Below, piece after piece: positions 2,486 through 53,046 of a stretch of 64,000 nt of DNA. Position 1 is the first letter of the stretch, and each line of letters opens with the position of its first letter. This DNA comes from Thermoanaerobaculia bacterium (GTDB lineage: Bacteria; Acidobacteriota; Thermoanaerobaculia; Gp7-AA8). The notes beneath the pieces were generated by a model. The model saw nothing but the letters and a program-made list of their open reading frames with translations, did not search any database and had not been told where the DNA came from. A program made the translations under genes and the position numbers. The stretch lies in contig DASXRT010000089.1 in assembly GCA_036506455.1 (NCBI GenBank), forward strand, positions 778 through 64,777, written 5' to 3'.

Positions 2486-3151
2486 ATGGATCCGTGGCTG
2501 GAGAGCTTCGCGCGCGCGAATTTCCTGCGCAGCGCCGACACCGCGCACGATCTGAAGACTCCGCTCAACGTCGCCGTGCTCAATCTGGAGTTGTTGCGCA
2601 TGCGCATGCGCAAGCTCACGGACGGCTCCGACGATCCGAAACTGATCGAGTACGCGAGCTCCATCGAGATCGAGCTCCGGCGCATGGCTCGGATCTTCGA
2701 CACATTCTTTCTCCTCTCCACGCCGCCGAAGGGCGAACAGGTGCCGGTCGCTGTCGACGTCGTAGCGATTTGTGTCGAGGAGGCGAAGACAGCCGGAGTG
2801 AACGTCGAAGGAATCGCATTGGCGTCCGTCATCGCGCACGAGCCGAGAATCCGGCAGGCGTTTCGGCTGTTCTTCGAGGGAGCGGCAAGACTTTTTCCGA
2901 CTGGAAACCTCCGAGCGGTCGTGGCACGCGATGCTGAGCGTGTCAAGGTGACCTTGTCGGGGCCTCCGCCGTCCGAAGATTTTGAGCCGTCCAAGATTTT
3001 CAAGTTCTATTACACAGACCCGCTCGGCAATGCCGATCTGTCGCTTGCCACCGCACGTCTGATCGTCGAGACGTATGGTGGTGAGCTGAAGGCTGAGCAG
3101 GAAAGTGATAAGGTCGTATTACGGTTATCGGTCCCACTGGGTGAAGAATGA
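2486..3151 (+). CDS. Sensorless histidine-kinase core (DHp + degenerate ATPase domain)
   Basis: H-box HDLKTPLN at residue ~21; only ~20 aa lie N-terminal to the phospho-His, so there is no sensor or TM domain. C-terminal HATPase-like region lacks a canonical DxGxG G1 box (SGPPPSEDFEP instead). ATGA overlap with the downstream response regulator. Confidence 0.7.
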   Translation: MDPWLESFARANFLRSADTAHDLKTPLNVAVLNLELLRMRMRKLTDGSDDPKLIEYASSIEIELRRMARIFDTFFLLSTPPKGEQVPVAVDVVAICVEEAKTAGVNVEGIALASVIAHEPRIRQAFRLFFEGAARLFPTGNLRAVVARDAERVKVTLSGPPPSEDFEPSKIFKFYYTDPLGNADLSLATARLIVETYGGELKAEQESDKVVLRLSVPLGEE

Positions 3152-4524
3152 AGAGAGTCCTCATCGTTGACGATGATCGGGCCACGAGCGCCGGCATGGC
3201 GGACGTGGTCGAAGAGTGGGGGTATGAGCCGGAGGTCGCGGACACGGTCAAGGCCGGTTGGAACGCGGTTTCCAAGCTCGTCCCCGACGTGGCCATCGTT
3301 GATTTGAAGTTGCCCGATGGATCGGGCCTCGATCTGCTCCATCGCATCAAGGAAAGCTACCCCGACGTCTCCGTCGTGATCCTCACCGGCCACGCGACCG
3401 TCGATTCCGCGGTCAAGGCCCTGAAGGTTGGCGCCGAAGATTACGTGACCAAGCCGGTCGACCTGCCGCGTCTGCAGGTCATCCTCAAGACCGTCGAAGA
3501 CAAGCAGATGATGAAGCAGGAGATCCTGGAGCTTCGTCGTCAGCTCCAGAAGATGGGCGCTCTCGGCCATCTCGTCGGCAAGTCGCCGCGGATGCAGAAG
3601 CTCTTCGAAGAGATCGAGATGGTCGCGAACACCGACGCCAACGTGTTCATCGTTGGCGAATCGGGTTCGGGCAAAGAGGTCGTCGCCAACACGATTCATT
3701 CGCTCTCGCGTCGGAAGATGAAGCCCTTCATCGCGTTCAACTGCGGCGCGATCTCGCCGACGCTCATCGAGTCGGAGATCTTCGGCCACGAGAAGGGCGC
3801 GTTCACGAACGCGATCAAGCGCCGCGAGGGCTACTTCGAGCTGGCCAAGGGCGGCACGGTGTTTCTCGATGAGATCACGGAGATGCCGATCGAGTTGCAG
3901 GTGAAACTCCTGCGCGTGCTCGAGGAGTCGAAGTTCCGCCGCGTCGGCGGAAATGAAGAGATCACGATCGATGCTCGCATCATCGCCGCCTCGAACCGCG
4001 ATCCGCAGAAGGCGATCGGCGACGGCAAGCTGCGCGAGGACCTCTACTACCGGCTGAATGTGTTCCCGATCGAAGTGCCACCGCTGCGCGAGCGGTTGGA
4101 GGACATCCCCCTGTTCGCCCATTTCTTCCTGCAGAAGCTGAACGAGACCGAAGAGAAGAAGGTCGAGAACATCGAAGGCGACTTCGTCGAGGCGCTGCAG
4201 CAGTACGAGTGGCCGGGTAACGTCCGCGAGCTGCGCAACGTCATCAATCGCGCGTTCATCATGGCCCGCACCAACACGCTCACCGTCGAGTGCCTCCCCG
4301 ACAAGCTCCTCGGCGCGCGGAAGCGGCGCTCGAAGAACGCGGTCACGATTCCTCTCGGTCAGCCGATGGAAGAGGTTGAGCGTCTCATCATCGAAGAGAC
4401 GCTGCATATGACCGACGGCGACCGCCGCAAGACCGCTGAAATCCTCGGCATCTCGTACAAGACGCTCTACAACAAGACGAAAAAGTACAAGGCCGCGGGC
4501 CCGGAAGACGATGACGAGGAGTAG
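3148..4524 (+). CDS. Sigma-54-dependent two-component response regulator (NtrC family)
   Basis: Receiver domain (VLIVDDD…D54-like DLKLPDGSG). AAA+ sigma-54 interaction domain with Walker A GESGSGKE and a GAFTNA variant of GAFTGA. C-terminal Fis-type HTH. Confidence 0.9.
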
Positions 4525-4607
4525 CGGTGCTCGGTGCTCAGTGCTAAGTGCTCGGAGATGCAGCGAGTTACGGAGCACTGAGCACCGAGCACTAAGCACT
4601 TCCTCGG
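4525..4607. repeat. Imperfect long hairpin built from GTGCTCN heptad repeats (4 direct heptads, then 4 inverted GAGCACY heptads)
   Basis: Seen directly: cggtgctcg gtgctca gtgctaa gtgctcgg … cggagcact gagcacc gagcact aagcact. About 24 of 30 positions pair. Begins 1 nt after the regulator stop; no U-tract follows. Confidence 0.6.
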
Positions 4608-13438: not shown

Positions 13439-14722
13439 GTGAAGATCTACCGCGCGCGCGTGTTCACGCCGGTTTCGGATCCCTTCACCACAGGAATCGC
13501 GTCGAGCTTCGTCGCCTATGACGACGGCTATCTGGCAGTCGACGACGGCCGCATCACCGATTGCGGCGACTGGTCGCAACATCCCCACGGCGACATCGTC
13601 GACCTCGGCCGCCGGTCGCTGATCTCTCCCGGCTTCATCGACACGCACCTTCACGCGCCACAGCTCGAGATGATCGGCTCGTACGGCGGACATCTGCTCG
13701 AGTGGCTCAATCGCTACACGTTCCCGACGGAAGCCAAGTTTGCGGATCCCGAGCACGCGCGCCGCGTCGCGAAGGCTCTCTTTTCCGAGCTGCTGCGGAA
13801 CGGAACACTTTGCGCGCTGATCTTCTCGACGATTCATGCCGAGGCCACGGACATCTTTTTTACCGAGGCGGAGCAGAGCGGATTCCGCGGAATCATCGGC
13901 AAGACGATGATGGACCGCAACGCGCCGGAATTTCTGCTCGAGCGGGCGCGCGACTCATACGAGCAAAGCCGTGCGCTCCTTCAGAAGTGGCATAACCGCG
14001 GCCTGCTGCGTTACGCGGTGACGCCGCGCTTTGCCCCGACCTCGACTCCGGAGCTGCTCGAGGTTGCCGGCCAGCTCAAGAAAGAGTTCCCCGATGTGTA
14101 CGTGCAGACACACATCTCGGAGAACAAGAATGAAGTGGAGTGGGTGCATGAGCTCTTTCGTGCAGCCGAGTACGCAGACGTGTATGACGACTTCGGATTA
14201 CTCAGCGATCGTACTGTTCTCGCTCATGGGGTTCATCTGACCGAGGAGGAGCTCGATCTTTTGAATCGCCGGCGGTCGCGCATCGCTCATTGCCCGAACT
14301 CGAACCTATTTCTCGGCAGCGGCCTCTTCCCTCTCCATCGCGTCCTCGAAGCGGGAGTGATCGTCGGCCTCGGCACCGATATCGGCGCGGGAACGACTCC
14401 ATCGATGTTTACGGCGATGGCCGATGCGTACAAAGTGCAACAGGTGCAGGGCGTCTCACTCAGCCCATATCACCTCTGGTACATGGCCACGCTGGGTGGG
14501 GCGCGCGCGCTCTCCCTCGACACAGAGACTGGCAGCCTCGAGCGCGGCAAGTCGGCCGACTTCCTCGTCCTCGATTTGAAAGCCACGCCGCTCATCGAGT
14601 TGCGGAGCGAACGCGCCTCATCGATCGAGGAGCTTCTCGCCGGTTTGATCTTCATGGGCGACGACCGCGCTGTTTCTCAGGGATTCATCGCTGGCCGTGA
14701 GGTCTGGCGCAGGCCGGCGTAA
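13439..14722 (+). CDS. guaD: Guanine deaminase-like amidohydrolase
   Basis: Metal-binding PGFIDTHLHAPQ HxH motif and an amidohydrolase-family TIM-barrel pattern. GTG start. Confidence 0.75.
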   Translation: MKIYRARVFTPVSDPFTTGIASSFVAYDDGYLAVDDGRITDCGDWSQHPHGDIVDLGRRSLISPGFIDTHLHAPQLEMIGSYGGHLLEWLNRYTFPTEAKFADPEHARRVAKALFSELLRNGTLCALIFSTIHAEATDIFFTEAEQSGFRGIIGKTMMDRNAPEFLLERARDSYEQSRALLQKWHNRGLLRYAVTPRFAPTSTPELLEVAGQLKKEFPDVYVQTHISENKNEVEWVHELFRAAEYADVYDDFGLLSDRTVLAHGVHLTEEELDLLNRRRSRIAHCPNSNLFLGSGLFPLHRVLEAGVIVGLGTDIGAGTTPSMFTAMADAYKVQQVQGVSLSPYHLWYMATLGGARALSLDTETGSLERGKSADFLVLDLKATPLIELRSERASSIEELLAGLIFMGDDRAVSQGFIAGREVWRRPA

Positions 14723-14725
14723 CCG

Positions 14726-14741
14726 TGGCGTGCTCTTTGCG
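14726..14741 (+). promoter_or_regulatory. Sigma-54 (-24/-12) type promoter candidate: TGGCGT-N5-TTGCG
   Basis: GG and GC sit at the exact consensus spacing (TGGCAC-N5-TTGCA). Predicted TSS ~14752. RBS AGGAGG at 14757–14762, then ATG at 14768. Confidence 0.45.
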
Positions 14742-14767
14742 CGTCTAAGGCTCATCAGGAGGTTCCG

Positions 14768-16021
14768 ATGAGGCGACATGCGTTTTTCCTGGTCGCGGTT
14801 ATGCTGACCGTACCAGTCTTCGGGCAGTACCGCTCTGTCTGGCGTTCGGCGGGAGACATCGTCGAAGGAGTTTCCGGCAGCGTCGTCGGCACTGTCGTCG
14901 ATGTTGACGAAGGACATAACCAGTTGACGCTCTCAGCCGATGAAGATCGATATGGCCAGATCACGGTCGCGACCGATTCGGTATCGACGCAATACAACGG
15001 CTTCGGCGATGTGATCAACGGGAAGCCGGAGATCTTCACGGGCAGCAAGGGATTTGCGAATGTCCGGCAAGGCGATCGACTCGAGATTCGCGGCGTCGGA
15101 AAAGCCGCCGGAGTTGTGCGCGCCGACCAGATCACGCTCCTCGGCCGCTCCGTAGCGGCGCCGCAGACCGGCGTCGGCGAGACGCGATCGCCGAGCGGCG
15201 GTATCTCGACGCCGACTGTCGGAAGTACGGCCACCGTCTACGGTCGCGTCGAAGGGGTTGTGCGGCAGGTCAACGCATCGGACAACCGCATCGTCGTGGA
15301 GACGGACCGTCGGGAGATCTTCAACATCCGGACGTCGTCGAACACGCCGGTCTACTACCGCAACGATACCTATCAGGTCGGAAATCTCGAGGTAGGCGAT
15401 CGCATCCGCGTCGAATCGGACGGGAATGCGTCGAGCGACCGCGAGATCCGCGCGCGCAGCATCGAGGTCTTGCAAAGCGTGCAGGAGGGTGGAGGCGCGC
15501 GCGTGTCATCTGTGACGGGGCGCGTGACGAGCATCGATCGAACGGCCGATGTCGCACGCGTGGATACCGGTCGCGGCGAAGTTCGCGTCGACATGAGTCG
15601 CGCTTATGACGCGACCGGCCGCCGCGTCCGAGCCGCCGATCTGCAGGTCGGCGACCGCGTCGATATCAGTGGCAGTTACGGCAGCAGCTCCGACGTTTTC
15701 ATGGCGTCGACGGTGCGCTTCAACGAGGACGTGTTCTCACCACCGCGAGATACCCAAGCCACCGGTGAATACCCGACCGAGTTCGCCACGGTGACGATCT
15801 CCGGTACGGTGACCGAATCGCTGCAGACGGCCGCGAATCTCGCGATCAAAGATCGGACGGGGCGAACGATCTCGCTTTACGTGACCGAGGATTTCGCGGT
15901 GCGGACGAAGAGCGGCGGTTACACGACGGCGGAGAAGCTGAATGTAAACGACAACGTGCTGGTCAAGGCATTCCGCGATTCGGCGGGGAACTACATCGCG
16001 CAGACGATACGGATGAGGTGA
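14768..16021 (+). CDS. Secreted protein with four tandem ~60-aa beta-rich repeats (DUF5666/BOF-like OB-fold repeats)
   Basis: Signal peptide MRRHAFFLVAVMLTVPVFGQ. A repeat pattern G.V..V……..V.V……….LQVGDRV recurs four times. Confidence 0.6.
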   Translation: MRRHAFFLVAVMLTVPVFGQYRSVWRSAGDIVEGVSGSVVGTVVDVDEGHNQLTLSADEDRYGQITVATDSVSTQYNGFGDVINGKPEIFTGSKGFANVRQGDRLEIRGVGKAAGVVRADQITLLGRSVAAPQTGVGETRSPSGGISTPTVGSTATVYGRVEGVVRQVNASDNRIVVETDRREIFNIRTSSNTPVYYRNDTYQVGNLEVGDRIRVESDGNASSDREIRARSIEVLQSVQEGGGARVSSVTGRVTSIDRTADVARVDTGRGEVRVDMSRAYDATGRRVRAADLQVGDRVDISGSYGSSSDVFMASTVRFNEDVFSPPRDTQATGEYPTEFATVTISGTVTESLQTAANLAIKDRTGRTISLYVTEDFAVRTKSGGYTTAEKLNVNDNVLVKAFRDSAGNYIAQTIRMR

Positions 16022-16101
16022 CGGACGCGACTGTGGGCCCGGCGCTTCGCTGATGGGTTATTTGGAATTTCTCTCCTCGCCTGAGTGTCGAAATCAGCAC
16101 A

Positions 16102-16443
16102 ATGGCGAAGAAAGACCTGCTACCCGGCATCAGCGCGGACGACGACTGTCCGCCGGTCGCAGTATTCGACTCGCGCCGAGCGATCAGGCGAGCGCGCCGG
16201 CGCGCTATTCTTCGCGATGCCGCACAGCTCATTCTTCTCATCGGCGTCGACTGGCTGTTCGTCCGCTGGCCGTACACACATGTTCCGACGTTTGACCGCG
16301 CGCATTCCGTGACGATTGTTGCGCTGCTCAATGCGGCCGTGCTTACGCATGTGGCCGTGTCGCGCGCGTTCCCGCGCTGGTCGGCGCAGCGAATTGCGCG
16401 CACGTGGTGTCTCGCCGAGCGAGCGCGCTTCTTTCAGCGCTGA
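16102..16443 (+). CDS. Hypothetical small membrane protein
   Basis: 113 aa with two hydrophobic segments. Occupies the gap between convergent genes. Weak call. Confidence 0.3.
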   Translation: MAKKDLLPGISADDDCPPVAVFDSRRAIRRARRRAILRDAAQLILLIGVDWLFVRWPYTHVPTFDRAHSVTIVALLNAAVLTHVAVSRAFPRWSAQRIARTWCLAERARFFQR

Positions 16444-18396
16444 TCAGGCTTCTCGCTTCTCGCGCATCGCTGGCGCGATCAATCTCGCGAACAGAAGCAG
16501 CAGGACGATCGCCGCGACCGCGATGGCGATCCAGAAGTACTTTGTCTCCGGTCGATCGTCCGATGCCCCAAGCCCGGGCGGCTTGCTCATACCGATCTCT
16601 CGCGCCGGCTCGGTCAGAATTCTCGGCGCGAGCAGCGCGAGGTCGTATCGCGGCGCGTTGGCGCTGCGGTTGCCGTAGAGCAACGTGAGCGCGCCACCGG
16701 GATGCTCGAATCGCAGCGCGTAAGACGGCAGCAGGATCTCGATCGCTGTGATCGGCAGCGGAGCGTTGTCGCCTTCGTGGACGAGAACATCGATCGCCGG
16801 CGTGCCGTACAACGCGACATCAAAGACAAGCGGCGCAGCGGCCCTCTCGGGATCGTCGTTGCGCCACTGAGCCTGCGCGATCTCGGATTCTTCGCGTCCT
16901 CGGCGCTCATCGGCGGTCCGAACGAGTCGGACGTTTCGCTCGAAGACTCTTCCCGGCGTCGTGACGACAACTCTTCCTCCGGCCGGCAGTGTCTCGTACG
17001 GCAATCGAAGGTGATAGCGCGACACGCCGCGTTCGCTCTCGCCTCGTTGCGGAATTGCGAGATTGATTTTCAGCGGCTCGTCGCGATGTTCGACGATGTA
17101 GGGCACCTGATGCGACGTGGCGTTGGTGATACGAACGTCGGCGAGATCGTGACTGCGTGCGAGGACATCGACATCGAGTGGCAGGACCATGAGGCCGGTC
17201 ATTGCAGTTTCCAGCGGCCGCGCGTAGCGGAAGGATGCTCGATCGATCTTCGCAGCTAGCGCGGGAAGCGGTGGGGGAACCAACGTCTCGTTGACAGTGA
17301 CGGCTTGTTTCGGTGGGCTTGCCCACCGCGCGTGAGCGATCGCTCTGCGACCAACGAATTGCCGCGCCGCCTCGAGATCGTATTGCGGCCGTGACAGACG
17401 CGGATTCCCGTAGCGCGCGATGAGCGGCGAACCGTCAGGAGACTCGAAGTAGATCCACGGCTGCGGCGAAAACCTCGCGACGATCGCAGTGATCGGCAGC
17501 GGGGGATTCGCACCATCGTCGATGACAAGGTCCAGCTCACGGCCCGAAGGCGTAGTGATCGGTACATTCATCTCCGCAGCGACGAATCCGTCACGGACCG
17601 CGCGCCGTAGTTGCGATGCGCCGAGAACACCAGGTGTGATCGCGCCGCTGGTGAGCTGTGGCTCTGTCACACGCGCCGCTCGAAACACATCGCCATCCGC
17701 AACCTCAACCTCCAGCGCCTCGACAGGAAGACGCGGCGCGGGAAGATTGATTCGATAACGGCTCTTCCCCGGCTCGCTCGGCAATTTGCGAAACGGCATC
17801 GACGCGCGCAGCCGTTCCCGCGGAGCGACCGCGTCATGCAGTCTCACTTGGACGGTGGAGACGGCGGATACTTGCGCACTGGAACGATCGTCCCACGTGA
17901 CTCGAAAGTAACGGTATTCGCCTGCAGAGAAAGCGATCTCGGGCCGGCGAAGCTGCTGATCGGGAAGATCGAACACGGTCGTATCCGCGAGCATCGTCCA
18001 GTGAGAACGATCTCCGCCGCCTTCGAGAGTGACGTGTTTGAGGTACGGCGGCCTCACACCACCGAAACGAAGGCGATCGACATCGCGAATGGCACCCAGG
18101 TCGGCTTCGAAGCCGCTCGTTGTTTTCGTCGGAGCGATGGGCAATGGCGTCGCTGCTGTCCATCGCGGCTCGCGCGACCGTGGTTGAATCATCAGATAGC
18201 CGATCTCGCGGCCGGTGTTATCGACGAAACGCAAGTCGTGCAGATCGGGAGCGCCTCCGGCGAGCAGCGATTCATCGACGTCGAGACGATTCGCTCCCTT
18301 CGCAGTTGGCGTAACGAGCCGTTCGTGCTGAAACGACTGCGCCTCGATCGTAGCAGCGATCACCACCAACGCGACACCGAGAGCCACTTCCTTCAC
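16444..18396 (-). CDS. Secreted/anchored protein, DUF3999-like, partner of DUF2339
   Basis: N-terminal signal peptide and a C-terminal TM anchor (WIAIAVAAIVLLLLFARLI). 4-nt overlap with the upstream DUF2339 gene. DUF assignment is from memory of the conserved pairing. Confidence 0.55.
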   Translation of the reverse strand: MKEVALGVALVVIAATIEAQSFQHERLVTPTAKGANRLDVDESLLAGGAPDLHDLRFVDNTGREIGYLMIQPRSREPRWTAATPLPIAPTKTTSGFEADLGAIRDVDRLRFGGVRPPYLKHVTLEGGGDRSHWTMLADTTVFDLPDQQLRRPEIAFSAGEYRYFRVTWDDRSSAQVSAVSTVQVRLHDAVAPRERLRASMPFRKLPSEPGKSRYRINLPAPRLPVEALEVEVADGDVFRAARVTEPQLTSGAITPGVLGASQLRRAVRDGFVAAEMNVPITTPSGRELDLVIDDGANPPLPITAIVARFSPQPWIYFESPDGSPLIARYGNPRLSRPQYDLEAARQFVGRRAIAHARWASPPKQAVTVNETLVPPPLPALAAKIDRASFRYARPLETAMTGLMVLPLDVDVLARSHDLADVRITNATSHQVPYIVEHRDEPLKINLAIPQRGESERGVSRYHLRLPYETLPAGGRVVVTTPGRVFERNVRLVRTADERRGREESEIAQAQWRNDDPERAAAPLVFDVALYGTPAIDVLVHEGDNAPLPITAIEILLPSYALRFEHPGGALTLLYGNRSANAPRYDLALLAPRILTEPAREIGMSKPPGLGASDDRPETKYFWIAIAVAAIVLLLLFARLIAPAMREKREA

Positions 18397-28438: not shown

Positions 28439-28483
28439 TCGAGGCTACAACGCAAGCGTGCTTAACTGTCTTCCGTACGCTTT

Positions 28484-28554
28484 GGGGTCAGGTCTTCAAT
28501 TTTCAGTTTTTTTCTTCAGGCGGTAGAAAAAAGTGAAAATTGAAGACCTGACCC
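28484..28554. repeat. AT-rich ~30-bp near-perfect inverted repeat (long hairpin) in the uvrA / permease divergent region
   Basis: GGGGTCAGGTCTTCAATTTTCAGTTTTTTTC - 11-nt loop - GAAAAAAGTGAAAATTGAAGACCTGACCC. The right arm contains the GTG start (28533) and the first 7 codons of the permease. Confidence 0.7.
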
Positions 28555-29837
28555 TAACCCGCTCCATCGGTCTGGTGCGCGCCACGGCGATCGTGGCAGG
28601 CATCATCATCGGCGCATCGATCTTCGTTCAGCCGTCAGAGATCAGCCGTCGCGTACCCGATGAGCGCGGCATTCTGCTGGTCTGGTTACTGGCCGGAGTG
28701 CTGACTCTCTTCGGCGCGCTCGTCTGTGCTGAGCTCTCTTCCGCATTCCCGCGTACCGGCGGAGTCTACGTCTTTCTGAAAGAAGCGTGGTCGCCGGCGG
28801 CTGGCTTCCTGTGGGGCTGGGCGATGTTCTGGAGCATGCACTCCGGGATCGTCGCGGCGATCGCTGTCGTCGTGGCGCGATATGTCGGCTTCTTCATCCC
28901 GCTCGCCGATGTTCGCAGCGTGGCCATCGCCGCGATCGCGATCCTCTCGGCGATCAACTACATCGGCGTGCGACAGGGAAGCGCGCTGCAGACCTTTTTC
29001 ACGATCGCGAAAGTTGCAGCGATCGCAGTCCTGCTGATCATCATGACTCAGGCGCCGGGCGCTCATTCCGCGCAGTCGATGCCGTTCCGGCTTCGCGATT
29101 TCATCCTGGCGCTATCGGCAGGACTCTTCGCCTACGGTGGATGGCACATGGTGACGTACACGGCGGAAGAGACCCGCGCGCCCGAAAAGACGATTCCCCG
29201 CGCCCTGCTCCTCGGAATCCTCATCGTCACCGCCTGCTACCTCGGATTGAACGCCGCGTATCTTCATGTGCTGCCGCTCGACCGCGTCATCGCATCGCAG
29301 CGGATCGCCGCTGACGTCGCGACCGCGGTGGCCGGACCGCGCGGCGCTACGCTCGTTTCTCTACTCGTCATCGTCTCCGCCCTCGGCGCGCTGGCCGGCG
29401 TCATCCTCGCCGGTCCGCGTGTCTACTACGCGATGGCGCAGGACGGCCTGCTGTTTCGCCGGATCGGCGCGATTCATCCGCGATTTCGAACGCCGCACCT
29501 CGCGATCGTCTTGCAGGCGGTGTGGTCGTCGATTCTCGTCGCGACCGGAAGTTACCGCGCGCTCTTCACGCGCGTCGTGTACACGGAGTGGATTTTCTTC
29601 GCGTTGATGGCGGCGGGAGTATTCATTCTCCGGCGCCGTGCCGATTACGCCCCGGCATACCGGACATTCGCATTCGTGCCCATCGTCTTCATCGTTTCCG
29701 CGCTGGCGATCGTCATCAACCAGATCGTGGTCGAGCCGATGGAGAGCGCGATAGGATTGCTTCTCGTCGCCGCAGGTCTGCCCGTCTACTTCATCTGGAC
29801 GCGGAGACAAGGAGCCGTCGCCGATGCCGGTCATTGA
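28533..29837 (+). CDS. APC-family amino acid permease
   Basis: 12-TM protein with an APC N-terminal consensus (…ATAIVAGIIIGASIF…). GTG start. Confidence 0.85.
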   Translation: MKIEDLTLTRSIGLVRATAIVAGIIIGASIFVQPSEISRRVPDERGILLVWLLAGVLTLFGALVCAELSSAFPRTGGVYVFLKEAWSPAAGFLWGWAMFWSMHSGIVAAIAVVVARYVGFFIPLADVRSVAIAAIAILSAINYIGVRQGSALQTFFTIAKVAAIAVLLIIMTQAPGAHSAQSMPFRLRDFILALSAGLFAYGGWHMVTYTAEETRAPEKTIPRALLLGILIVTACYLGLNAAYLHVLPLDRVIASQRIAADVATAVAGPRGATLVSLLVIVSALGALAGVILAGPRVYYAMAQDGLLFRRIGAIHPRFRTPHLAIVLQAVWSSILVATGSYRALFTRVVYTEWIFFALMAAGVFILRRRADYAPAYRTFAFVPIVFIVSALAIVINQIVVEPMESAIGLLLVAAGLPVYFIWTRRQGAVADAGH

Positions 29838-37097: not shown

Positions 37098-38903
37098 ATG
37101 CGACGACTGCTACTGGCGTTGATCCTGATTTCGGTCAGCCTGCAGGCCCAGACACCCCCGCCCCCGCCCGACCCGGCCAACCGCGCGAATCTCACGATCG
37201 CGGTCGAGCCGCTCGGCGACAACGAGCAGGGAGTCGTGTCGCGAATCGTGTTTCGTTTTGCGGTTCCATCAGATGTCCCGCCCGGTGTCCCGCTGGTCAT
37301 CCAGGGTTCGGTGATGCAGGGCGGGCAGGTTGTGAAGAACTTCCGTTTCCAGGTGCCGCCTGATCAACACGATCTTTTGCGCACTACGCAATCGCTTCGC
37401 GAAGGGGACAACGAAATCGAAGCGCGCCTGCTGATCCCATTGGAGGAGCAGGCGCCGGTGATCCTCGGCAAAACGACAAAGACAGTGACTGTCGCGAAGA
37501 CCAACAAGATCTACGTCGCCGCGCCGAACGAGGGGGCCGAAGGAATTCTGGCGGAAGGCATCGTGCCGGAGACGATCGGCGCGGTGAAGATCCGCGCGCC
37601 GCGCCGCGATGTCGCACCGAATCTCTTTGTCGTCGACGTCGAAGTGAAGCCGCCCGTTACACGCGTCGAGTTCTGGGTCGAGGGAAAGAAGCTGCTCGTG
37701 CGCAACGCCGCTCCTTATCGCGCGGAGCTCGACCTCGGGAAATTGCCGAAACGAGTCGAAGTACGCGCCGTCGGCTACGACGCCAAGGGTCGCTACATCG
37801 ACGCCGATGCCTTCGTCGTCAACGAGCGAGAAACGCCGCTGGAAGTGAAGATCACGCGCACGGAGACGCCGGACGGCATCACCCACTTCAAGCTCAGCCT
37901 GCAGAATCCCAAGAACACCGAGATCGTGAGCGTCGTTCTCTTCGCCGGCAAGAACAAACTTCACGAGTGGAAGGAGCCTCCGTACGCGATCGACATCCCG
38001 ACGGCGCGGCTCAGCGGCGTCGAATACGTTCGCGCCTCGGCGACCGACAACACGAACTACGAAGCGTCCGACCTCCTTTTTCTCAGCGGACAGCGGTACA
38101 CCGAAGAGATCGAGGTCAATCTGGTCGAGCTTCCGGTCAGCGTGACCGATACGGCTGGCGCGCCAATCGTGAATCTGGAACAGAAAGACTTCATAATTTT
38201 CGAGAAGGGTAAGCAGCAAAAAATATCGGCTTTCAATTTCGCAAGTAATTTGCCGATCTCCGTGGGCATGCTGCTCGATCACTCCGGCAGCATGCAGCCG
38301 CGCATCAAAGCGGCCAAGGAAGCCGCAGTCGAGTTCTTCCGAAGCATCCTGCGGCCGACGGACCGTGCCTTCTTCGCCGCCTTCGCCTTCGACGCGACGA
38401 ACGTCGCGCCATTCGCCTCAGATATCGGCAGCCTCGAGCAGCAGGTCAACTCCAGCCCCGACGCTGTCGGTGGCACGTCGCTCTACGATGCGATCGTCAC
38501 CGGCCTCTATCGATTTCGGTCGATCCAGGGTCGGAAGGCGATGGTGATCATCACCGACGGTGAGGACACCACGTCGCGGCTCGCTTATGAAGACATGCTG
38601 ACCTACGTCCGCTCCGCGCGCGTTCCGCTCTACTTCATCGGCGTGGGACTCGGATTCGCTGACTTCGGTGGCGCATCGAAGATGAAGGCGCTGGCCGCGG
38701 AAACCGGCGGCGTCGCTTACTTCATCAAGGATGTGAAGCACCTCAAGGAGACGTATGCGCAACTGGAGAAGGATCTCCGCACGCAGTACCTGATCAGCTA
38801 CTACACTGAGAGCACGAAGAAGGACTTGGATTACCGCACCGTGGAGGTGAAGGTGAACCGGCCGGATGCGCGCGTGCGCACGATTCGAGGGTTCATACCG
38901 TAG
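37098..38903 (+). CDS. Secreted von Willebrand factor A (VWA) domain protein
   Basis: Signal peptide MRRLLLALILISVSLQAQ; a Pro-rich segment; C-terminal VWA with MIDAS DHSGSM…T…D. True ATG at 37098; the ORF-track start at 36924 overlaps the PP2C gene. Confidence 0.75.
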   Translation: MRRLLLALILISVSLQAQTPPPPPDPANRANLTIAVEPLGDNEQGVVSRIVFRFAVPSDVPPGVPLVIQGSVMQGGQVVKNFRFQVPPDQHDLLRTTQSLREGDNEIEARLLIPLEEQAPVILGKTTKTVTVAKTNKIYVAAPNEGAEGILAEGIVPETIGAVKIRAPRRDVAPNLFVVDVEVKPPVTRVEFWVEGKKLLVRNAAPYRAELDLGKLPKRVEVRAVGYDAKGRYIDADAFVVNERETPLEVKITRTETPDGITHFKLSLQNPKNTEIVSVVLFAGKNKLHEWKEPPYAIDIPTARLSGVEYVRASATDNTNYEASDLLFLSGQRYTEEIEVNLVELPVSVTDTAGAPIVNLEQKDFIIFEKGKQQKISAFNFASNLPISVGMLLDHSGSMQPRIKAAKEAAVEFFRSILRPTDRAFFAAFAFDATNVAPFASDIGSLEQQVNSSPDAVGGTSLYDAIVTGLYRFRSIQGRKAMVIITDGEDTTSRLAYEDMLTYVRSARVPLYFIGVGLGFADFGGASKMKALAAETGGVAYFIKDVKHLKETYAQLEKDLRTQYLISYYTESTKKDLDYRTVEVKVNRPDARVRTIRGFIP

Positions 38904-38982
38904 GTCGTAGGTCGTGGGTCATCGGTCGTAGGTACCGGGGGCCTTGATGCGCTGAGGCCCGCGACACCTACGACCGACGACC
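38903..38982. terminator. Hairpin made of GGTCGTAGGT decamer repeats between convergent genes (candidate bidirectional terminator / REP-like element)
   Basis: ggtcgtaggtcgtgggtcatcggtcgtaggtaccgggggcc … ggcccgcgacacctacgaccgacgacc. A 17–22 bp stem, flanked by the stops of both converging genes. Confidence 0.45.
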
Positions 38983-38989
38983 TCGATCT

Positions 38990-42683: not shown

Positions 42684-43277
42684 GTGCGGCGCCTCATCGT
42701 CCTCGCCGTTGCCATACTGCTGATGCGGTGCGGCGCAGCGCCCGCCGAACCTGATCATCAGGCTGAATGGCGCGATGTCTTGCGGCAGAAGAAGGCCGCA
42801 GTCTCGCCGCACGCCACTCCACACGCGCGGCAGATCTACGCTGATGCGCTCTCCGCGTTCGTGCGCAAGCATCCCGGTCACAGCCGCGCGCGCGAGGTGT
42901 ACCAGCGCATCCAGCTCGAGTTCGCGCAGGAGCTGTCATCGTTCGGGCGCTATCAGGACTCGATCCGCATCTATCGCGCCGTTCTCACGAACGATCCGCG
43001 TAACGAGGAGGCGCGCCGCGGACTGGCCGTGGCGATGGACCGGCTGGCCGTCACCCATCAGAAGCTGCTGGGCATCGAGATCGGCATGTCGAAGAAGGAC
43101 GTCGCCCATCTCCTCGGCAAGCCGATCCCCGGGTGGACCGTGACGAACGAGCGGCCGTCGGCGACGGTCGAAGCCTGGTACTACCGAACGACCGACGGCA
43201 GTCTGGCCGCGATCTACTTCCGCGACGGCGAGGTCTTTGCGGCGGAAGAAAAGTCGCAGGCCCGCGTCGGCCTCTAA
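42684..43277 (+). CDS. Secreted protein with helical (TPR-like) region and a C-terminal BamE/SmpA-OmlA-like domain (tentative)
   Basis: GTG start gives the signal peptide VRRLIVLAVAILLMRCGAAPA. The upstream part of ORF 42468.. overlaps the opposite-strand gene. C-terminus: IGMSKKDVAHLLGKP…YFRDGEVF. Confidence 0.45.
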   Translation: MRRLIVLAVAILLMRCGAAPAEPDHQAEWRDVLRQKKAAVSPHATPHARQIYADALSAFVRKHPGHSRAREVYQRIQLEFAQELSSFGRYQDSIRIYRAVLTNDPRNEEARRGLAVAMDRLAVTHQKLLGIEIGMSKKDVAHLLGKPIPGWTVTNERPSATVEAWYYRTTDGSLAAIYFRDGEVFAAEEKSQARVGL

Positions 43278-43279
43278 AT

Positions 43280-43342
43280 GGGGTCAGACCCCTCAGGCGA
43301 GCATGGCGAGATTCACGCGAAGTTCATGAGGGGTCTGACCCC
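43280..43342. repeat. Two 13-bp palindromes GGGGTC(A/T)GACCCC, 50 bp centre-to-centre, extendable to a 16-bp-stem hairpin
   Basis: GGGGTCAGACCCCTCA …31 nt… TGAGGGGTCTGACCCC, placed 3 nt after the upstream stop. Its termini (GGGGTCAG … CTGACCC) match those of the 28484–28554 element. Confidence 0.6.
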
Positions 43343-46568: not shown

Positions 46569-47172
46569 TCCGGTACGCGGAGACGTAGCGGTTGCCCTTG
46601 AGAAAGAATCGGAGCGGCCAGTGCGCCGCGTCGGGTGCTCCTTCGACTCCGATGCGGGGACTGACGGCGATGTCGTCGTCATCGACCTCGATTTCGCGCG
46701 CGGTGATGAAGAGCCGCTCGCCGCGAAGACTCTCGCCGTCAAGGCTCTTGTCGATCTCCATCGCCGAGCAGATTTTTCCCGGACCTTTCATCAGATCGAA
46801 GTCGCGTTTCGCTTTCGGCCGGCGTTTGCGCAACGCTTCGATACCGCGCAGCGGCTCCGCTCCGCGCAGCAGCACGGCCTCGGCGATGTCCGCTTCCTGG
46901 GTGACGACATTGAGGCACCAGTGCATGCCGTAGGTGAAGTAGACGTACGCGTGACCGCCTTCGAGATACATCGACTCGTTTCGCGCCGAGCGTAAGCCAC
47001 GCCGGGCGTGACTGGCCGCGTCGTTCGCGCCGAGGTAGGCTTCGGCCTCGACGATGCGGGCAGAGAGGAGCTCACGTCCGATGCGCCGCCACAGAACGCA
47101 ACCGAGGAGCGAGCGGGCGACGGTCACTGTATCGCGCAGGTAAAATTCGGCAGGAAGCTTCGCCGGCTTCAT
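46561..47172 (-). CDS. mpg: DNA-3-methyladenine glycosylase (Mpg/AAG family)
   Basis: HAYVYFTYGMHWCLNVV core typical of the Mpg family. 203 aa. Confidence 0.85.
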   Translation of the reverse strand: MKPAKLPAEFYLRDTVTVARSLLGCVLWRRIGRELLSARIVEAEAYLGANDAASHARRGLRSARNESMYLEGGHAYVYFTYGMHWCLNVVTQEADIAEAVLLRGAEPLRGIEALRKRRPKAKRDFDLMKGPGKICSAMEIDKSLDGESLRGERLFITAREIEVDDDDIAVSPRIGVEGAPDAAHWPLRFFLKGNRYVSAYRNV

Positions 47173-48035
47173 GCGGAATGAATCGGGCCGGCTCCACGGC
47201 GGTCGAGCTGCTCTTCACTGACGTGTCTCCCGATCAGTGCGATCAGCTCGCGATGCACGCCACGAGGCGCACCGACGATATTGCCGCGCTCGAACCAGCG
47301 ATCGCCGCCTGCGAAGTCGGTGATCACGCCTCCCGCTTCTCGGACGAGAAGCGAACCGGCGGCGACATCCCAGGGCGAGAGATGGATCTCGAAGAAGCCG
47401 TCGAAGATCGCAGCGGCGGTATAGGCGAGATCGAGCGCCGCCGACCCGGCACGGCGTACACCTTTTGCTAAACGAATGACGTCTTCAAAAATACGAACAT
47501 AAACAGATACGTATTCTTGTGCGCGAAAGGGAAATCCGGTGGCGAGGAACGCACCTTCGACGTGTTCCTGATCGGAGACCTGCATGCGCTTGCCGTTGCG
47601 GAACGCGCCTGCGCCTTTTTCGCCGGTGAAGAAAAGCTCTCGCAGCGGCTCATAGATCACGCCGGCTGTGATCTCGTTTCCGACGTGCAGGCCGATGGAG
47701 ACCGACCACACTGGAAAATGCTGGAGATAGTTCGACGTGCCATCGAGCGGATCGATGACCCAAGTACGCTCGCTTGTCCCGCCCGACGCTCCGCTCTCTT
47801 CACCAAGAAACGAATCAGCGGGAGAAAGATCATGAATGCACGAGATGATCGCCTTCTCGGCCTCGCGATCGGCGGCGGATACCCAATCGTTGCGCGCCTT
47901 CATGTCGGCGTCTGCTTTGCCGAGGGTCTCCCAATAGCGGATGAGGACGGCGGCGCCGCGTTTGGCCGCCTCGATGCCGATCTCGACGTCGTTCAAGCGA
48001 CCGCTATGGTGTAGCATCTCCCGCACAGTGTCCAT
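47169..48035 (-). CDS. suhB: Inositol monophosphatase family protein (SuhB-like)
   Basis: Motifs …EESG…, WVIDPLDGT and …WDVAAG…. Start at ATG 48035 (MDTVREM), or 48020. Confidence 0.85.
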   Translation of the reverse strand: MDTVREMLHHSGRLNDVEIGIEAAKRGAAVLIRYWETLGKADADMKARNDWVSAADREAEKAIISCIHDLSPADSFLGEESGASGGTSERTWVIDPLDGTSNYLQHFPVWSVSIGLHVGNEITAGVIYEPLRELFFTGEKGAGAFRNGKRMQVSDQEHVEGAFLATGFPFRAQEYVSVYVRIFEDVIRLAKGVRRAGSAALDLAYTAAAIFDGFFEIHLSPWDVAAGSLLVREAGGVITDFAGGDRWFERGNIVGAPRGVHRELIALIGRHVSEEQLDRRGAGPIHSA

Positions 48036-51000
48036 GAGAGGGGCTTCACGCCGCAGCAGCGACGCGGTCGTGGTGTCGTTGCGAAATTTCGCCTGGCCTC
48101 GACCGGCGATAGCCACACTGCGTCATCCGACGCTGCCGTGGTTCGAGAGCTTCGCGCCGGAGGTCGAGCTCAGCGCCATACCAATCGCCGATCTGCGCAA
48201 CGCCGGCGCACGCGATCGGCTTTCGCTCGTCGGTCAGTTTGCGACGCACATCGCGCTGTTGCAGTTTGCCGGCATCGCCGACGGCGAATTCGACGCGAAC
48301 GAATGGGTCGTCGTCCGCAAGCGCGGCAGCGACTGCCGCCTGGTCCGCATCGCGGCGCGCGAATGCGATGCCGACGCGACACCGTCTCCGCTGCACAGCA
48401 CCCAGCATTTCGCCGAAGCGATCCATGCGCCGGAGCTGGAGACGCTGAAACAATCGTGGACGCGAGCGGAGTCGATCTTCGCCGAAGTGCACGGCCGCCT
48501 TCGAAGCGATGCCGCGGCGGATATGCGATGGCTGCAGCGATGCGCTGTCGGCGAGATTCTTCCGCCCGGTGCCGAGGCGATCAGCGCGATGTGGAGCAGC
48601 GGCGGACCGCACGAGATCGCCGGCACGGACGCACTCGACGCGTTCCACCTTTACGCGGCACTTGACGAATCGGCACGCCTCATCGTCATCGGCAGCGAGT
48701 TCCCGATTCAACGCTATGCGGCCCTTGCCTCGCTCGATGCTTCGCTGGTCGGCTCGACGCTCTCGCCCGCCGAGGTCGCGGATCGCTTATCGGAAGTGAA
48801 GAGCGGCCAGGTTCTGGTGGTCTCGGGCAATCTCGATGATGAGTCTCGGCGTGTCGTCGAGATGATCAGACGGCACGAAGAGCAGCCGGCCATCGTCCGC
48901 CGATGGACGGTTCTCTCGACGCGGCTCGCCGCACAGCGTGCGCTGGAGGAGCGATTGATCGCGCTCCCCGACGCTCGCGCATGGCTCGATGCGTTCACGG
49001 CGAGCGATGTGTATGACAAGTATCTCCGTGACGGCGCACAGCCGGTCGACGACGGCGTGTTCGCACGAACGCCGGAGCCGCGCCGCTCGTACATCGCAGC
49101 GCTGGCCTTGCTCGGGACACGGATCCCGTCCACGCTGGCGCGTGACTTTCTTTCAGAGTTCCTTTTCGAGCAGCCGCTCGATGCGCTAATCGTCGACGGC
49201 GTGACATCGCTCGAAGATGACTGCTTCGTCTTCGCGTCCGAAGCGGTGCGCGAGCACTGCGCACGTCATGTGCCGGAGGCATCGCGACCAGCACTCGCGC
49301 GCGCTGCGGCATCGGTGACGGAGAAATTGGAAGAGATTCAGTGGCGGAGCGCGGAAGAAACCGTGGACGCGCTCAATGCCCTACCGCGATCGACGCTGAC
49401 GCCCCGACTCGCTTCACGCCTCGCCAATGCTCTCGTCGACAGCGGTCGCTATCGCGATGCGCGGGATCTCGCACCGCTTCTGGCCGAAGATGCGCGCGAA
49501 CTGCTGTTGGCGCGGTGCGAGCGGCGAACCGGCGACTATGCGACAGCATTGGTCCATGTGGAACATCTTCACGGTTTCGACGCGGAGATCCTGCGCGCGG
49601 AGCTTCTTCGCCTGACCGGTCGCATCGACATAGCGCGTCAGGTGCTCGAGCGCGCGGAACCGCACACTGACGAAGAGAAGATGCGCCTGGCATATGAGCG
49701 TGCCGTCCTGGCGATCGACGAGGGAGAACGTCCCATCGCCGTTGCGGGCGATCACTACCTGGCCCGCCGTTCGGCAACGTACAGCGCGTTGATGCACGGC
49801 GATTTCGAAGCGGCTGCGGACCTCGCTGCTCAATCGTTCGCCGCCGCGCGTTCGGCCGCGGAGCGCATCGACTCCTGCCTCGACCGTGTATTCGCATCGT
49901 TCTCGTCGGGGCGCTGGTCGGAGACACGCGCCATCGCGCTCGAGGCGCTTGCCATCGTCGACGAGGCGCAGGGTGATCGCGCTGCGGCCGGCATCCTCTT
50001 TACCCTGACCTTTGTCGAAGCTGACGATGGCCGCTGGACGTCGGCCGCGCAACATATCGCCCGACTGCGACAGTATTACGCGAATGATGCTCTGCGACTG
50101 GCCGAGATCGACCTGCTGTCCGGATACCTCGAGTTCGCTCGCGGTCATTTCGACGAAGCGCGCCGTCTCGTCTCGACTCTTTTCGAGCGCAAGGAGCTCA
50201 TGCCGCAGATTCGAGAAGCCGCGGCACTGGTCCTCGACGAGATCGACTGGATCGAGCAGCGCCAGGCGTCGCTGCGATCGACGGGGAAAACTCAGAACCG
50301 CGAGCTTGACGAGCGTCATCGTTTGATGCACACGCGACGGGGAACGCCGGTGGATCCGTTGAGCGGATTTGCGGCCGCGCTGGCGCGATGGGAAGCGTCG
50401 CCGCAGTCCGAGCCACCGCAGCCCGCGACTCGCTCCGAGAAACTGAAACTCTTCCGCTCCTCGCTCGGCATCTCGCGCCACGATGTCGCGCGCACGATCG
50501 TCTCGGAGCTTTCGATCACGATGCCGGAGGCGGCGCCTGCTCGAACGACGGCTGACGTCGAGATGCTGCGCATCGCCGCATCGGCTGAGTATCCCTTTCG
50601 TGCCGATGCTTTCGCCATTCCGTGGTGTCACGTCACGCGAAACCGTCTCGGCCAGTGGTCGCAGGATGGCTTGCGATCGTTCGACGGCGCCACGCTCGAT
50701 CGCATCGCGTCATCGCTCGAACCCGACTGGCTCCGCTGCAACGAGCGCGAGATGCTGTTCATCGAGGGTTCGACGGCGTGGCCGCAGGCGTCGCGTGATG
50801 CGATCGCAGCGCTCTTCCGCACGCGCGCGGAGAATCATCGATTGCGGCGCATTCTCGAGCAGGATGAAGCGTCGGCACCCTCGCGTCGCGATTCGATCGA
50901 AGGCATCGTGGGTGATTCTGTGGCGATGCGTGAGATCTTCTCGCTCGTCGAGCGGATCGCGCAGCGCGACGTCCCGGTCTGCATCCTCGGCGAATCCGGA

Positions 51001-51858
51001 ACGGGGAAGGAGCTCGTCGGTCGCGCCATTCATCGCGCGTCATCGCGCCGACATAAGACCTTTACGGCGGTCAACTGCGCGGCGCTTCCGGAGAATCTGG
51101 TGGAGAGCGAGCTGTTCGGACACATGCGCGGTGCATTTACGGGCGCTGACCGCGATCGCGCCGGCTTGATCGAGACCTCTGACGGCGGCACGTTGTTCCT
51201 CGATGAGATCGGCGAGATGCCGCATGCCGCGCAGGCGAAGCTGCTGCGCTTCCTGCAGGACGGCGAGTTCCGCCGCGTCGGCGATACGACGAACCGGACC
51301 GCCGATGTACGCATCGTCAGCGCCACGAATCGCAAGCTCGAGGCCGCGGTCGAAGAAGGACGTTTCCGCGAGGACCTGTACTACCGCGTCCGCGGCATCG
51401 AGGTCGTTCTGCCTCCGCTGCGCGAACGCGGCGAAGACGTCATGCTTCTAGCGCAATACTTCCTCGCCCGCGAGCGGGCCAAACATCGAGCCGGTCCGCA
51501 GTCGTTCACACCCGAAGTCGAGACCCTGCTTCAGTCATACGGCTGGCCCGGAAATGTCCGCGAGCTGCAGAACACCGTTCGCGCCGCGCACGCGATGGCG
51601 GGCGACGCGCGCGAGATCGACATCGAGCATCTTCCGGAGCGGCTGCGCAAGGTGCGGCCGGTGAAGGTGACCGCCGGGTCGTATCAGGATGCGGTGGCGC
51701 GCTTCCGGCGCGATCTCATCGAAAAGTCTTTGGCCGCAGCGGCCGGAAACCAGAATCGCGCCGCGGCGCTGCTGAAGATCTCGCGTCAGGCTCTCGCGTA
51801 TCAGATCCGCGAGCTCGGCATCATGGTCGGAAAGCAGGCCCAGCGCCCGCGCGCGTGA
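48034..51858 (+). CDS. Giant orphan sigma-54-dependent activator: ~950-aa N-terminal helical-repeat (TPR-like) domain + AAA+ sigma-54 module + Fis HTH; no receiver domain
   Basis: C-terminus holds GESGTGKE Walker A, ESELFGHMRGAFTGAD (GAFTGA) and a PGNVRELQN arginine finger, then an HTH. Start is uncertain: ATG 48034 overlaps the suhB start codon as a CATG palindrome; GTG 48070/48073 and TTG 48079 are alternatives. The ORF-track start at 47941 lies inside suhB. Confidence 0.8.
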   Translation: MRGASRRSSDAVVVSLRNFAWPRPAIATLRHPTLPWFESFAPEVELSAIPIADLRNAGARDRLSLVGQFATHIALLQFAGIADGEFDANEWVVVRKRGSDCRLVRIAARECDADATPSPLHSTQHFAEAIHAPELETLKQSWTRAESIFAEVHGRLRSDAAADMRWLQRCAVGEILPPGAEAISAMWSSGGPHEIAGTDALDAFHLYAALDESARLIVIGSEFPIQRYAALASLDASLVGSTLSPAEVADRLSEVKSGQVLVVSGNLDDESRRVVEMIRRHEEQPAIVRRWTVLSTRLAAQRALEERLIALPDARAWLDAFTASDVYDKYLRDGAQPVDDGVFARTPEPRRSYIAALALLGTRIPSTLARDFLSEFLFEQPLDALIVDGVTSLEDDCFVFASEAVREHCARHVPEASRPALARAAASVTEKLEEIQWRSAEETVDALNALPRSTLTPRLASRLANALVDSGRYRDARDLAPLLAEDARELLLARCERRTGDYATALVHVEHLHGFDAEILRAELLRLTGRIDIARQVLERAEPHTDEEKMRLAYERAVLAIDEGERPIAVAGDHYLARRSATYSALMHGDFEAAADLAAQSFAAARSAAERIDSCLDRVFASFSSGRWSETRAIALEALAIVDEAQGDRAAAGILFTLTFVEADDGRWTSAAQHIARLRQYYANDALRLAEIDLLSGYLEFARGHFDEARRLVSTLFERKELMPQIREAAALVLDEIDWIEQRQASLRSTGKTQNRELDERHRLMHTRRGTPVDPLSGFAAALARWEASPQSEPPQPATRSEKLKLFRSSLGISRHDVARTIVSELSITMPEAAPARTTADVEMLRIAASAEYPFRADAFAIPWCHVTRNRLGQWSQDGLRSFDGATLDRIASSLEPDWLRCNEREMLFIEGSTAWPQASRDAIAALFRTRAENHRLRRILEQDEASAPSRRDSIEGIVGDSVAMREIFSLVERIAQRDVPVCILGESGTGKELVGRAIHRASSRRHKTFTAVNCAALPENLVESELFGHMRGAFTGADRDRAGLIETSDGGTLFLDEIGEMPHAAQAKLLRFLQDGEFRRVGDTTNRTADVRIVSATNRKLEAAVEEGRFREDLYYRVRGIEVVLPPLRERGEDVMLLAQYFLARERAKHRAGPQSFTPEVETLLQSYGWPGNVRELQNTVRAAHAMAGDAREIDIEHLPERLRKVRPVKVTAGSYQDAVARFRRDLIEKSLAAAAGNQNRAAALLKISRQALAYQIRELGIMVGKQAQRPRA

Positions 51859-52990: not shown

Positions 52991-53046
52991 CCGCGAGCTC
53001 GGCATCATGGTGAGCAAAGCAGCCTCAGCGCCCGCGCGTGTGACAA
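52991..53046 (+). repeat. Direct repeat copy B: decayed duplicate of the activator gene's 3-prime end (translates PRELGIMVSKAASAPARV)
   Basis: Matches 51807–51861. Together the two copies bracket the ~1.1-kb low-GC IPTL-CTERM gene. Confidence 0.7.

Follow-up and report, generated by a model that had tools for sequence, protein, structure and literature searches.

A conserved sigma-54-type promoter motif precedes the gene for a predicted exported protein of four OB-fold domains in Thermoanaerobaculia

Is the short two-block sequence TGGCGTGCTCTTTGCG, which stands between a guanine deaminase gene (guaD) and a gene with four DUF5666 repeats, a working sigma-54 (RpoN) promoter? The question arises from a stretch of 64,000 nt from a Thermoanaerobaculia bacterium (Acidobacteriota; GenBank assembly GCA_036506455.1, contig DASXRT010000089.1, positions 778 to 64,777 of the forward strand), which is referred to here as the window and whose positions are counted from its first letter. 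A first-pass annotation of this DNA had proposed a sigma-54 promoter and a ribosome-binding site ahead of an exported four-repeat gene, and the comparison of orthologous loci reported here sustains that proposal, in that the orthologues share the two-block motif and keep its distance from the ATG. In our judgement, TGGCGTGCTCTTTGCG is very probably a functional -24/-12 promoter of the gene for the 417-aa DUF5666 protein. The argument concerns the following features.

13439..14722, + strand: guaD, guanine deaminase gene, the upstream neighbour; stop codon TAA at 14720-14722
14726-14741, + strand: sigma-54-type promoter TGGCGTGCTCTTTGCG with its -24 and -12 elements (sequence, position weight matrix of the orthologues, conservation)
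14727..14728, + strand: GG dinucleotide of the -24 element, kept in 73/73 upstream regions
14739..14740, + strand: GC dinucleotide of the -12 element, within TTGCGC, 10 nt after the GG
14750..14754, + strand: predicted transcription start, about 12 nt past the -12 C and giving a leader of about 16 nt (from standard sigma-54 geometry)
14757..14762, + strand: Shine-Dalgarno sequence AGGAGG, 5 nt before the ATG
14768..16021, + strand: coding sequence of a 417-aa predicted exported protein with four DUF5666 repeats of the oligonucleotide/oligosaccharide-binding (OB) fold (Pfam, AlphaFold2, Foldseek)
14768..14827, + strand: signal-peptide-like N-terminus MRRHAFFLVAVMLTVPVFG, followed by Q (by inspection)

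Geometry of the motif and its frequency in the window

The first block, TGGC, occupies 14726-14729 and the second, TTGC, 14737-14740, and the gap between GG and GC is exactly 10 nt, the consensus spacing that the first-pass annotation had claimed. Its placement of the ribosome-binding site and start codon is likewise correct, with AGGAGG at 14757-14762 and the ATG of the target gene at 14768. The distance of 4 nt that it gave from the guaD stop holds for the GG dinucleotide, but the motif itself begins 3 nt after the stop. Its description of the site as near-consensus goes too far: only nine of the 12 specified positions match the textbook consensus TGGCACGNNNNTTGCW, and the three mismatches are A to G, C to T and W to G. 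The canonical form is given as TGGCAC-N5-TTGCW (Barrios et al. 1999, as cited in PMC3162934).

Judged by pattern counts in the window alone, the site is not significant, and the window by itself cannot validate it. Matches to TGGCACGNNNNTTGCW with at most two mismatches number 8 against 9.1 expected, and the motif is not among them; TGGC-N7-TTGC occurs 3 times (1.71 expected) and GGC-N7-TTGC 13 times (10.5 expected). Over the approximately 55 gene starts of the window, we estimate that about 0.27 chance sites would be expected at a background of 0.5% per window of positions. Three further sigma-54-like sites were judged to be chance matches: one at 47907 (+), antisense within a SuhB-like gene; one at 43227 (+), inside an open reading frame (ORF) and with a score at the level of shuffled sequence; and one at 53033 (-), in the spacer that precedes a 355-aa ORF without Pfam match and at a poor distance from its possible starts.

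Conservation of the motif across orthologous loci

The comparison set consisted of 74 species-level Thermoanaerobaculia genome loci, which were fetched with an alignment of 23 homologues as the query and whose target proteins share 34-89% identity; the hosts are uncultured soil bacteria (about 70 relatives), and 73 upstream regions were usable, 72 from these loci and the window's own. In all 73 regions, the best -24/-12-like match within 200 nt upstream was a site of the (T/C/A)GGC-N7-TTGC type. The strict core GGC-N7-TTGC was present 15-45 nt before the ATG in 65/73 regions, or 66/73 once the start of one locus (L070) was corrected, compared with 0.49% of random 30-position windows from the same loci. 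The GG-N10-GC spacing was kept in 73/73 regions, including the seven without the strict core, in which one or two changes were found (e.g. CTGCT, CCGCA or GGT).

The distance from the -12 C to the ATG was 25-31 nt in 63 of 65 sites, whereas relative to the guaD stop the motif lies anywhere between -22 nt (within guaD) and +327 nt, indicating that the element is tied to the downstream gene and not to the 3' end of guaD. A GGAG or GAGG was found 4-16 nt ahead of the ATG in 72/73 regions, and the motif and the Shine-Dalgarno sequence are separated by about 12-16 nt across the loci. Because the motif-to-start distance is the same in some 70 relatives, a real promoter is very probable.

Only GGC and TTGC are invariant in the alignment of these sites, which had been selected on that core, and the bases of the spacer and flanks vary freely between orthologues. 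Position -11 is G in 52/59 unique sites and position -10 is C in 46/59, which gives a clade-wide promoter profile of YGGC[GA][CT]-N5-TTGCGC. With a position weight matrix built from the orthologous sites only, the window site excluded, the window site scored 22.3 bits; the runner-up in 128 kb (both strands) reached 13.3 bits, which is within the range of shuffled sequence. Furthermore, no other recurrent site of at least 14 bits by this matrix was found in about 650 kb of related loci.

A diverged form of the promoter was observed in the subclade of L011 and L076 (9948-9963). It reads AGGCC(T/C)GCGATCTGCT, with CTGCT in the -12 region, and is shifted to 37 nt from the ATG, compared with the usual distance of about 26 nt.

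The gene order mdh-exo-guaD-DUF5666-o16102, in which exo encodes a 3'-5' exonuclease and o16102 is described below, is kept across the loci, and guaD precedes the target gene in 71/74 of them. The first-pass annotation had identified the upstream gene rightly, its product scoring well above the cutoffs of two guanine deaminase profiles (NCBIfam NF006679, 556.6 bits, cutoff 351; TIGR02967, 522.2 bits, cutoff 375) and also matching Pfam Amidohydro_1.

Proposed mode of transcription

On the sigma-54 reading, the sigma-54 holoenzyme would bind the GG (14727-28) and the GC (14739-40) on one face of the DNA, and the resulting closed complex would be unable to open unaided. A bacterial enhancer-binding AAA+ ATPase would then remodel this complex with ATP, transcription would begin near 14752, and the leader of about 16 nt would bear AGGAGG. 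The product, predicted to comprise four OB-fold barrels, would cross the inner membrane. The transcription unit probably consists of the DUF5666 gene alone.

A scan of 14300-16500 for sigma-70-like promoters, made with the E. coli-type consensus only, returned 0 sites, and a terminator scan of the same interval found none. In the orthologues with long spacers, guaD is set apart from the promoter by strong hairpins, in keeping with a transcription unit that is independent of guaD. In this genome, no hairpin follows either guaD or the DUF5666 gene, so that some read-through is possible.

Inspection of guaD for activator sites

Inverted repeats of an activator site, which the first-pass annotation suggested looking for inside guaD, did not emerge as a conserved feature. 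Those in 14400-14780 are only palindromes of GC runs and one within coding sequence. The synonymous-codon entropy of the last 70 or so guaD codons was 1.2-1.4, above the gene mean of 1.08, indicating that no hidden constraint lies there. Palindrome counts were comparable with those of a control region, and the enrichment analysis of 8-mers and palindromes gave one match, AAGTCGGCCGACTT, a perfect 14-bp palindrome at 14549-14562, some 195 bp ahead of the predicted start, whose arms (AAGTC-N4-GACTT) are present in 22/65 loci. We rejected it as an enhancer site, since its codons specify GKSADF, a conserved amidohydrolase motif, and the synonymous sites around it are unconstrained; it is probably a coding coincidence.

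Weighing of the alternatives

Several observations count against a sigma-54 promoter at this site. The three departures from the textbook consensus include a G for A/T at position -11; no conserved upstream activator site was found by inverted repeats, codon entropy or palindromes; a six-frame translation of the window contains no RpoN box; the 4-kb surroundings of the target gene are free of activator genes in all 74 loci; and no terminator was found between guaD and the promoter in this genome, so that read-through from guaD may also express the DUF5666 gene. Part of this evidence would suit a different DNA-binding protein, either a winged-helix response regulator that recognizes TGGC/TTGC as a direct repeat with an 11-bp period or a repressor at its operator, with the site lying within the 5' region of a transcript started further upstream, by guaD read-through or from an unseen promoter. 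TGGC and TTGC are indeed imperfect direct repeats with an offset of one helical turn, guaD and the gene are not separated by a terminator in the window, and neither an upstream activator site nor a nearby activator gene was found. However, the bases that never vary coincide with the GG and GC of sigma-54 promoters, along with the usual T before GG and TT before GC; the 12-16 nt to the Shine-Dalgarno sequence leave no space for a -10 element and a start downstream of the motif, which therefore could not serve a sigma-70 promoter as an activator site overlapping its -35 element; and the hairpins between guaD and the motif in many orthologues argue against reliance on read-through. We consider such a binding site unlikely.

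A chance match without function would agree with the window, where pattern counts are at the level expected by chance and a fraction of a site is expected over its gene starts, but it is excluded by the retention of the motif in 66/73 regions against a background of 0.5%, and conservation across genomes thus refutes it. Promoters of the -35/-10 type, of sigma-70 or extracytoplasmic function (ECF) sigma factors, need a gap of 16-19 nt, to which the 7 nt between the blocks are unsuited, and the local form of an ECF-like promoter, seen at the next gene, is GGAAT-N18-GTC. Taken together, a functionless match or a promoter of a sigma factor other than sigma-54 is very improbable. Hardly any credence is due to the remaining idea, that the blocks act in RNA as the arms of a hairpin, GGCGUGC...GCGCGUC, serving as a guaD terminator or attenuator or as a structure of the 5' untranslated region. 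The window segments can form a 7-bp stem, but over 65 orthologues only 50.8% of cells pair, a value reached by 423/500 shuffles, and a single double change in 455 cells leaves no covariation; the local fold has a z-score of -0.84, Rfam gives no match at E <= 1, no terminator-like site is present, and the distance to the guaD stop varies. The pairing test over the orthologues effectively refutes this reading.

The four-domain target protein

The target gene encodes, as the first-pass annotation had it, a protein that looks secreted and OB-fold-like, with a signal-like segment, four weak DUF5666 repeats and four barrels. The repeats, at residues of about 35-127, 160-236, 248-319 and 340-416, are mutually homologous. 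The whole protein matches Pfam DUF5666 (PF18914) with 39.1 bits (cutoff 27), and single repeats score 16.8-19 bits each. By inspection, the N-terminus has a basic n-region, a hydrophobic core and a conserved (S)AFGQ junction; since an RR pair in this segment is not conserved, a Sec signal is likelier than a Tat signal, and we predict that the protein is exported, more likely by Sec. A pI of 5.4 makes the mature protein mildly acidic. It has at least 854 homologues, and the taxon labels are all Thermoanaerobaculia or Acidobacteriota among the matches listed.

The AlphaFold2 model has a mean per-residue confidence (pLDDT) of 74 and shows four separate beta-barrels joined by low-confidence linkers, with pLDDT values mostly of 72-94 within the domains, except for loop residues 78-92 of domain 1. 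The predicted template modelling score (pTM) is 0.29 and the relative placement of the domains is unreliable. Searched against the Protein Data Bank (PDB) with Foldseek, the model gave 22 matches at E <= 1e-3, mostly to OB folds (S1, the cold-shock domains of Unr, RNase II and Mpa). As modelled, the four domains are OB-fold barrels.

Two known families were considered and set aside. The copper/silver chaperone CusF (PF11604) reached 26.1 bits, below its cutoff of 27, and metal ligands are not conserved: no Met, His or Cys is conserved among 23 orthologues. BOF/YgiW (PF04076) matched neither the whole protein at E <= 0.01 nor any repeat at E <= 1. Of the earlier label "DUF5666/BOF-like repeats", the DUF5666 half is borne out by the Pfam score, and the BOF half has no sequence match behind it.

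CusF and BOF/YgiW nevertheless resemble the target protein in being exported small beta-barrels of the OB type, though each is a single domain, compared with four in tandem here, and the conserved Met, His or Cys of a Cu/Ag site such as that of CusF are missing. The best structural matches, S1, the Unr cold-shock domains and RNase II, share its beads-on-a-string arrangement of OB barrels; they are cytoplasmic RNA binders, unlike the target protein with its signal-peptide-like segment and acidic pI. Identity to matches of this type is 10-16% and the TM-scores are low because the modelled placement of the domains is unreliable.

As regards function, mentions of DUF5666 in the literature were confined to entries in omics tables. 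The gene adjoins those of guanine deaminase and the 3'-5' exonuclease, and on this basis the protein could be imagined as a periplasmic binder of nucleic acids, oligosaccharides or other polyanions which, induced by nitrogen or envelope stress, serves purine and nitrogen scavenging. In the same speculative picture, which we regard as improbable, its gene might be the most conserved sigma-54 target of the lineage, and the recognition of TTGCGC, with its G at -11, might be specific to the lineage or to this gene. We know of no sigma-54 regulon with an exported four-OB-fold component.

Candidate activators in the window

Two genes for enhancer-binding proteins (EBPs) are encoded elsewhere in the window.

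3148..4524, + strand: EBP1, NtrC-family response-regulator activator (REC, sigma-54 AAA+ and HTH_8 domains); candidate regulator, unlinked (Pfam)
47941..51858, + strand: EBP2, large activator; candidate regulator, unlinked (Pfam, GAFTGA)

The first-pass annotation had counted two sigma-54 activators, and both ORFs do contain Sigma54_activat, AAA lid and HTH_8 domains, preceded in EBP1 by REC. In EBP1, the GAFTGA loop reads GAFTNA (3796-3813), a substitution of G5 by N that Francke et al. (2011, PMC3162934) list no more firmly than as putatively functional. EBP1 is immediately preceded by a short gene for a HisKA kinase. The EBP2 domains form its C-terminus, with an intact GAFTGA at 51130-51147. 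Since the longest EBP2 ORF begins within the span of a convincing SuhB/IMPase-like gene (47169-48116, - strand), the true start of EBP2 is probably at 48034 or later. For approximately 950 N-terminal residues of EBP2, neither Pfam nor NCBIfam gave a match at E <= 1e-3.

Two activators with sigma-54 domains and GAFTGA or GAFTNA loops suggest that the organism almost certainly uses sigma-54, and so presumably carries rpoN; the literature search found nothing on rpoN specific to Thermoanaerobaculia. An EBP1 orthologue lies upstream of topA in L075 and not in L076 (10-kb flanks), but this synteny says little because the wider order topA...lig-mdh-exo-guaD is simply conserved. To name EBP1 or EBP2 as the cognate regulator is a guess, and neither can be linked to the promoter.

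Comparison with known sigma-54 promoters and implications

Canonical sigma-54 promoters, exemplified by glnAp2, nifH and pspA, share with this site the GG and GC 10 nt apart, the preceding T and TT and the short leader just downstream; like them, it is conserved ahead of orthologues, and activator genes are present on the same genome fragment. It differs from them at positions -22/-21, which are here G/A and C/T in place of A and C, in the extension of TTGCW to TTGCGC, and in that neither an upstream activator site nor a neighbouring activator gene came to light. As Francke et al. (2011, PMC3162934) present them, sigma-54 regulons have a common theme in functions of the cell envelope and exterior, with which a predicted exported envelope protein in a presumed diderm host is in line. 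The set described there is of cultured genomes with annotated functions, unlike a protein of four DUF5666 repeats from an uncultured class.

The result does not change the general understanding of sigma-54, as a well-understood kind of switch is proposed for an uncharacterised gene. To our knowledge, the mapping of sigma-54 regulons has been confined almost entirely to cultured Proteobacteria, Firmicutes and a few other groups; here comparative genomics alone yields a well-supported candidate in an abundant, essentially uncultured acidobacterial class. The clade profile, written YGGCRY-N5-TTGCGC at 25-31 nt from the ATG, can seed genome-wide scans for the regulon in complete Thermoanaerobaculia genomes, two of which that carry the locus are OY970284.1 and OY970380.1, and TGGCGTGCTCTTTGCG offers a concrete promoter for trials in heterologous sigma-54/activator systems. 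It would also provide a regulatory handle on the widespread family of proteins with four DUF5666 repeats, for which expression that is off unless activated would imply a conditional and not a housekeeping role.

The downstream gene and the end of the transcription unit

The DUF5666 gene is followed by a gene with a promoter-like motif of its own.

16064..16092, + strand: ECF-sigma-like promoter GGAAT-N18-GTCGAA of o16102, kept upstream of that gene
16102..16443, + strand: o16102, gene for a 113-aa basic protein with two hydrophobic segments (tblastn, conserved)

By tblastn, o16102 is found downstream on the same strand in 62/74 loci; its product has a pI of 11.5 and no Pfam or NCBIfam match. 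The full motif, TTATTTGGAAT-N18-GTCGAA, spans 16058-16092, with GGAAT at 16064-16068 and GTCGAA at 16087-16092, and is present in 42/63 upstream regions, GTCGAA typically ending about 9 nt from the ATG. No Shine-Dalgarno sequence stands ahead of o16102, and the motif resembles an ECF-sigma promoter of a leaderless mRNA. Since o16102 appears to have its own conserved promoter, the sigma-54 unit is probably monocistronic, with that promoter marking its 3' limit. In many orthologues, a stable hairpin is found between the DUF5666 stop and the o16102 motif.

Further downstream, o16102 (+) converges with a DUF3999 gene (16444-18396, - strand), and their stops abut at 16443/16444, so that the zero spacer leaves no room for a terminator between them.

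Intergenic hairpins elsewhere

Two kinds of stable hairpin were observed in other spacers of the window. Those at 4525-4600 and 38899-38985 have folding energies of -53 and -57 kcal/mol (z-scores of -7.2 and -5.9), and the same type occurs in spacers of L027, L029, L033, L034, L038, L042, L066, L068 and L074. Units of 6-8 nt repeated in tandem, together with their reverse complements, make up the two arms, and the repeat unit differs by site and species (CGGTGCT, CGTAGGT, GATTAGT, TGATCAC, GTCCCTG, CTACTCG, GAAGGCA). They stand at gene ends without a U-tract and are similar to terminators or to repetitive extragenic palindromic (REP) elements; we know of no described family with such tandem-repeat arms. 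Long, near-perfect hairpins of the second kind, at 28482-28557 and 43280-43342, begin with GGGGTCAG(G/A)(T/C)C and have energies of -46 and -45 kcal/mol (z-scores of -9.1 and -8.0). The GGGGTCAG seed is shared by intergenic hairpins from other Thermoanaerobaculia genomes (spacers of L026 and L032), and this recurrence suggests a dispersed family of REP-like or terminator elements.

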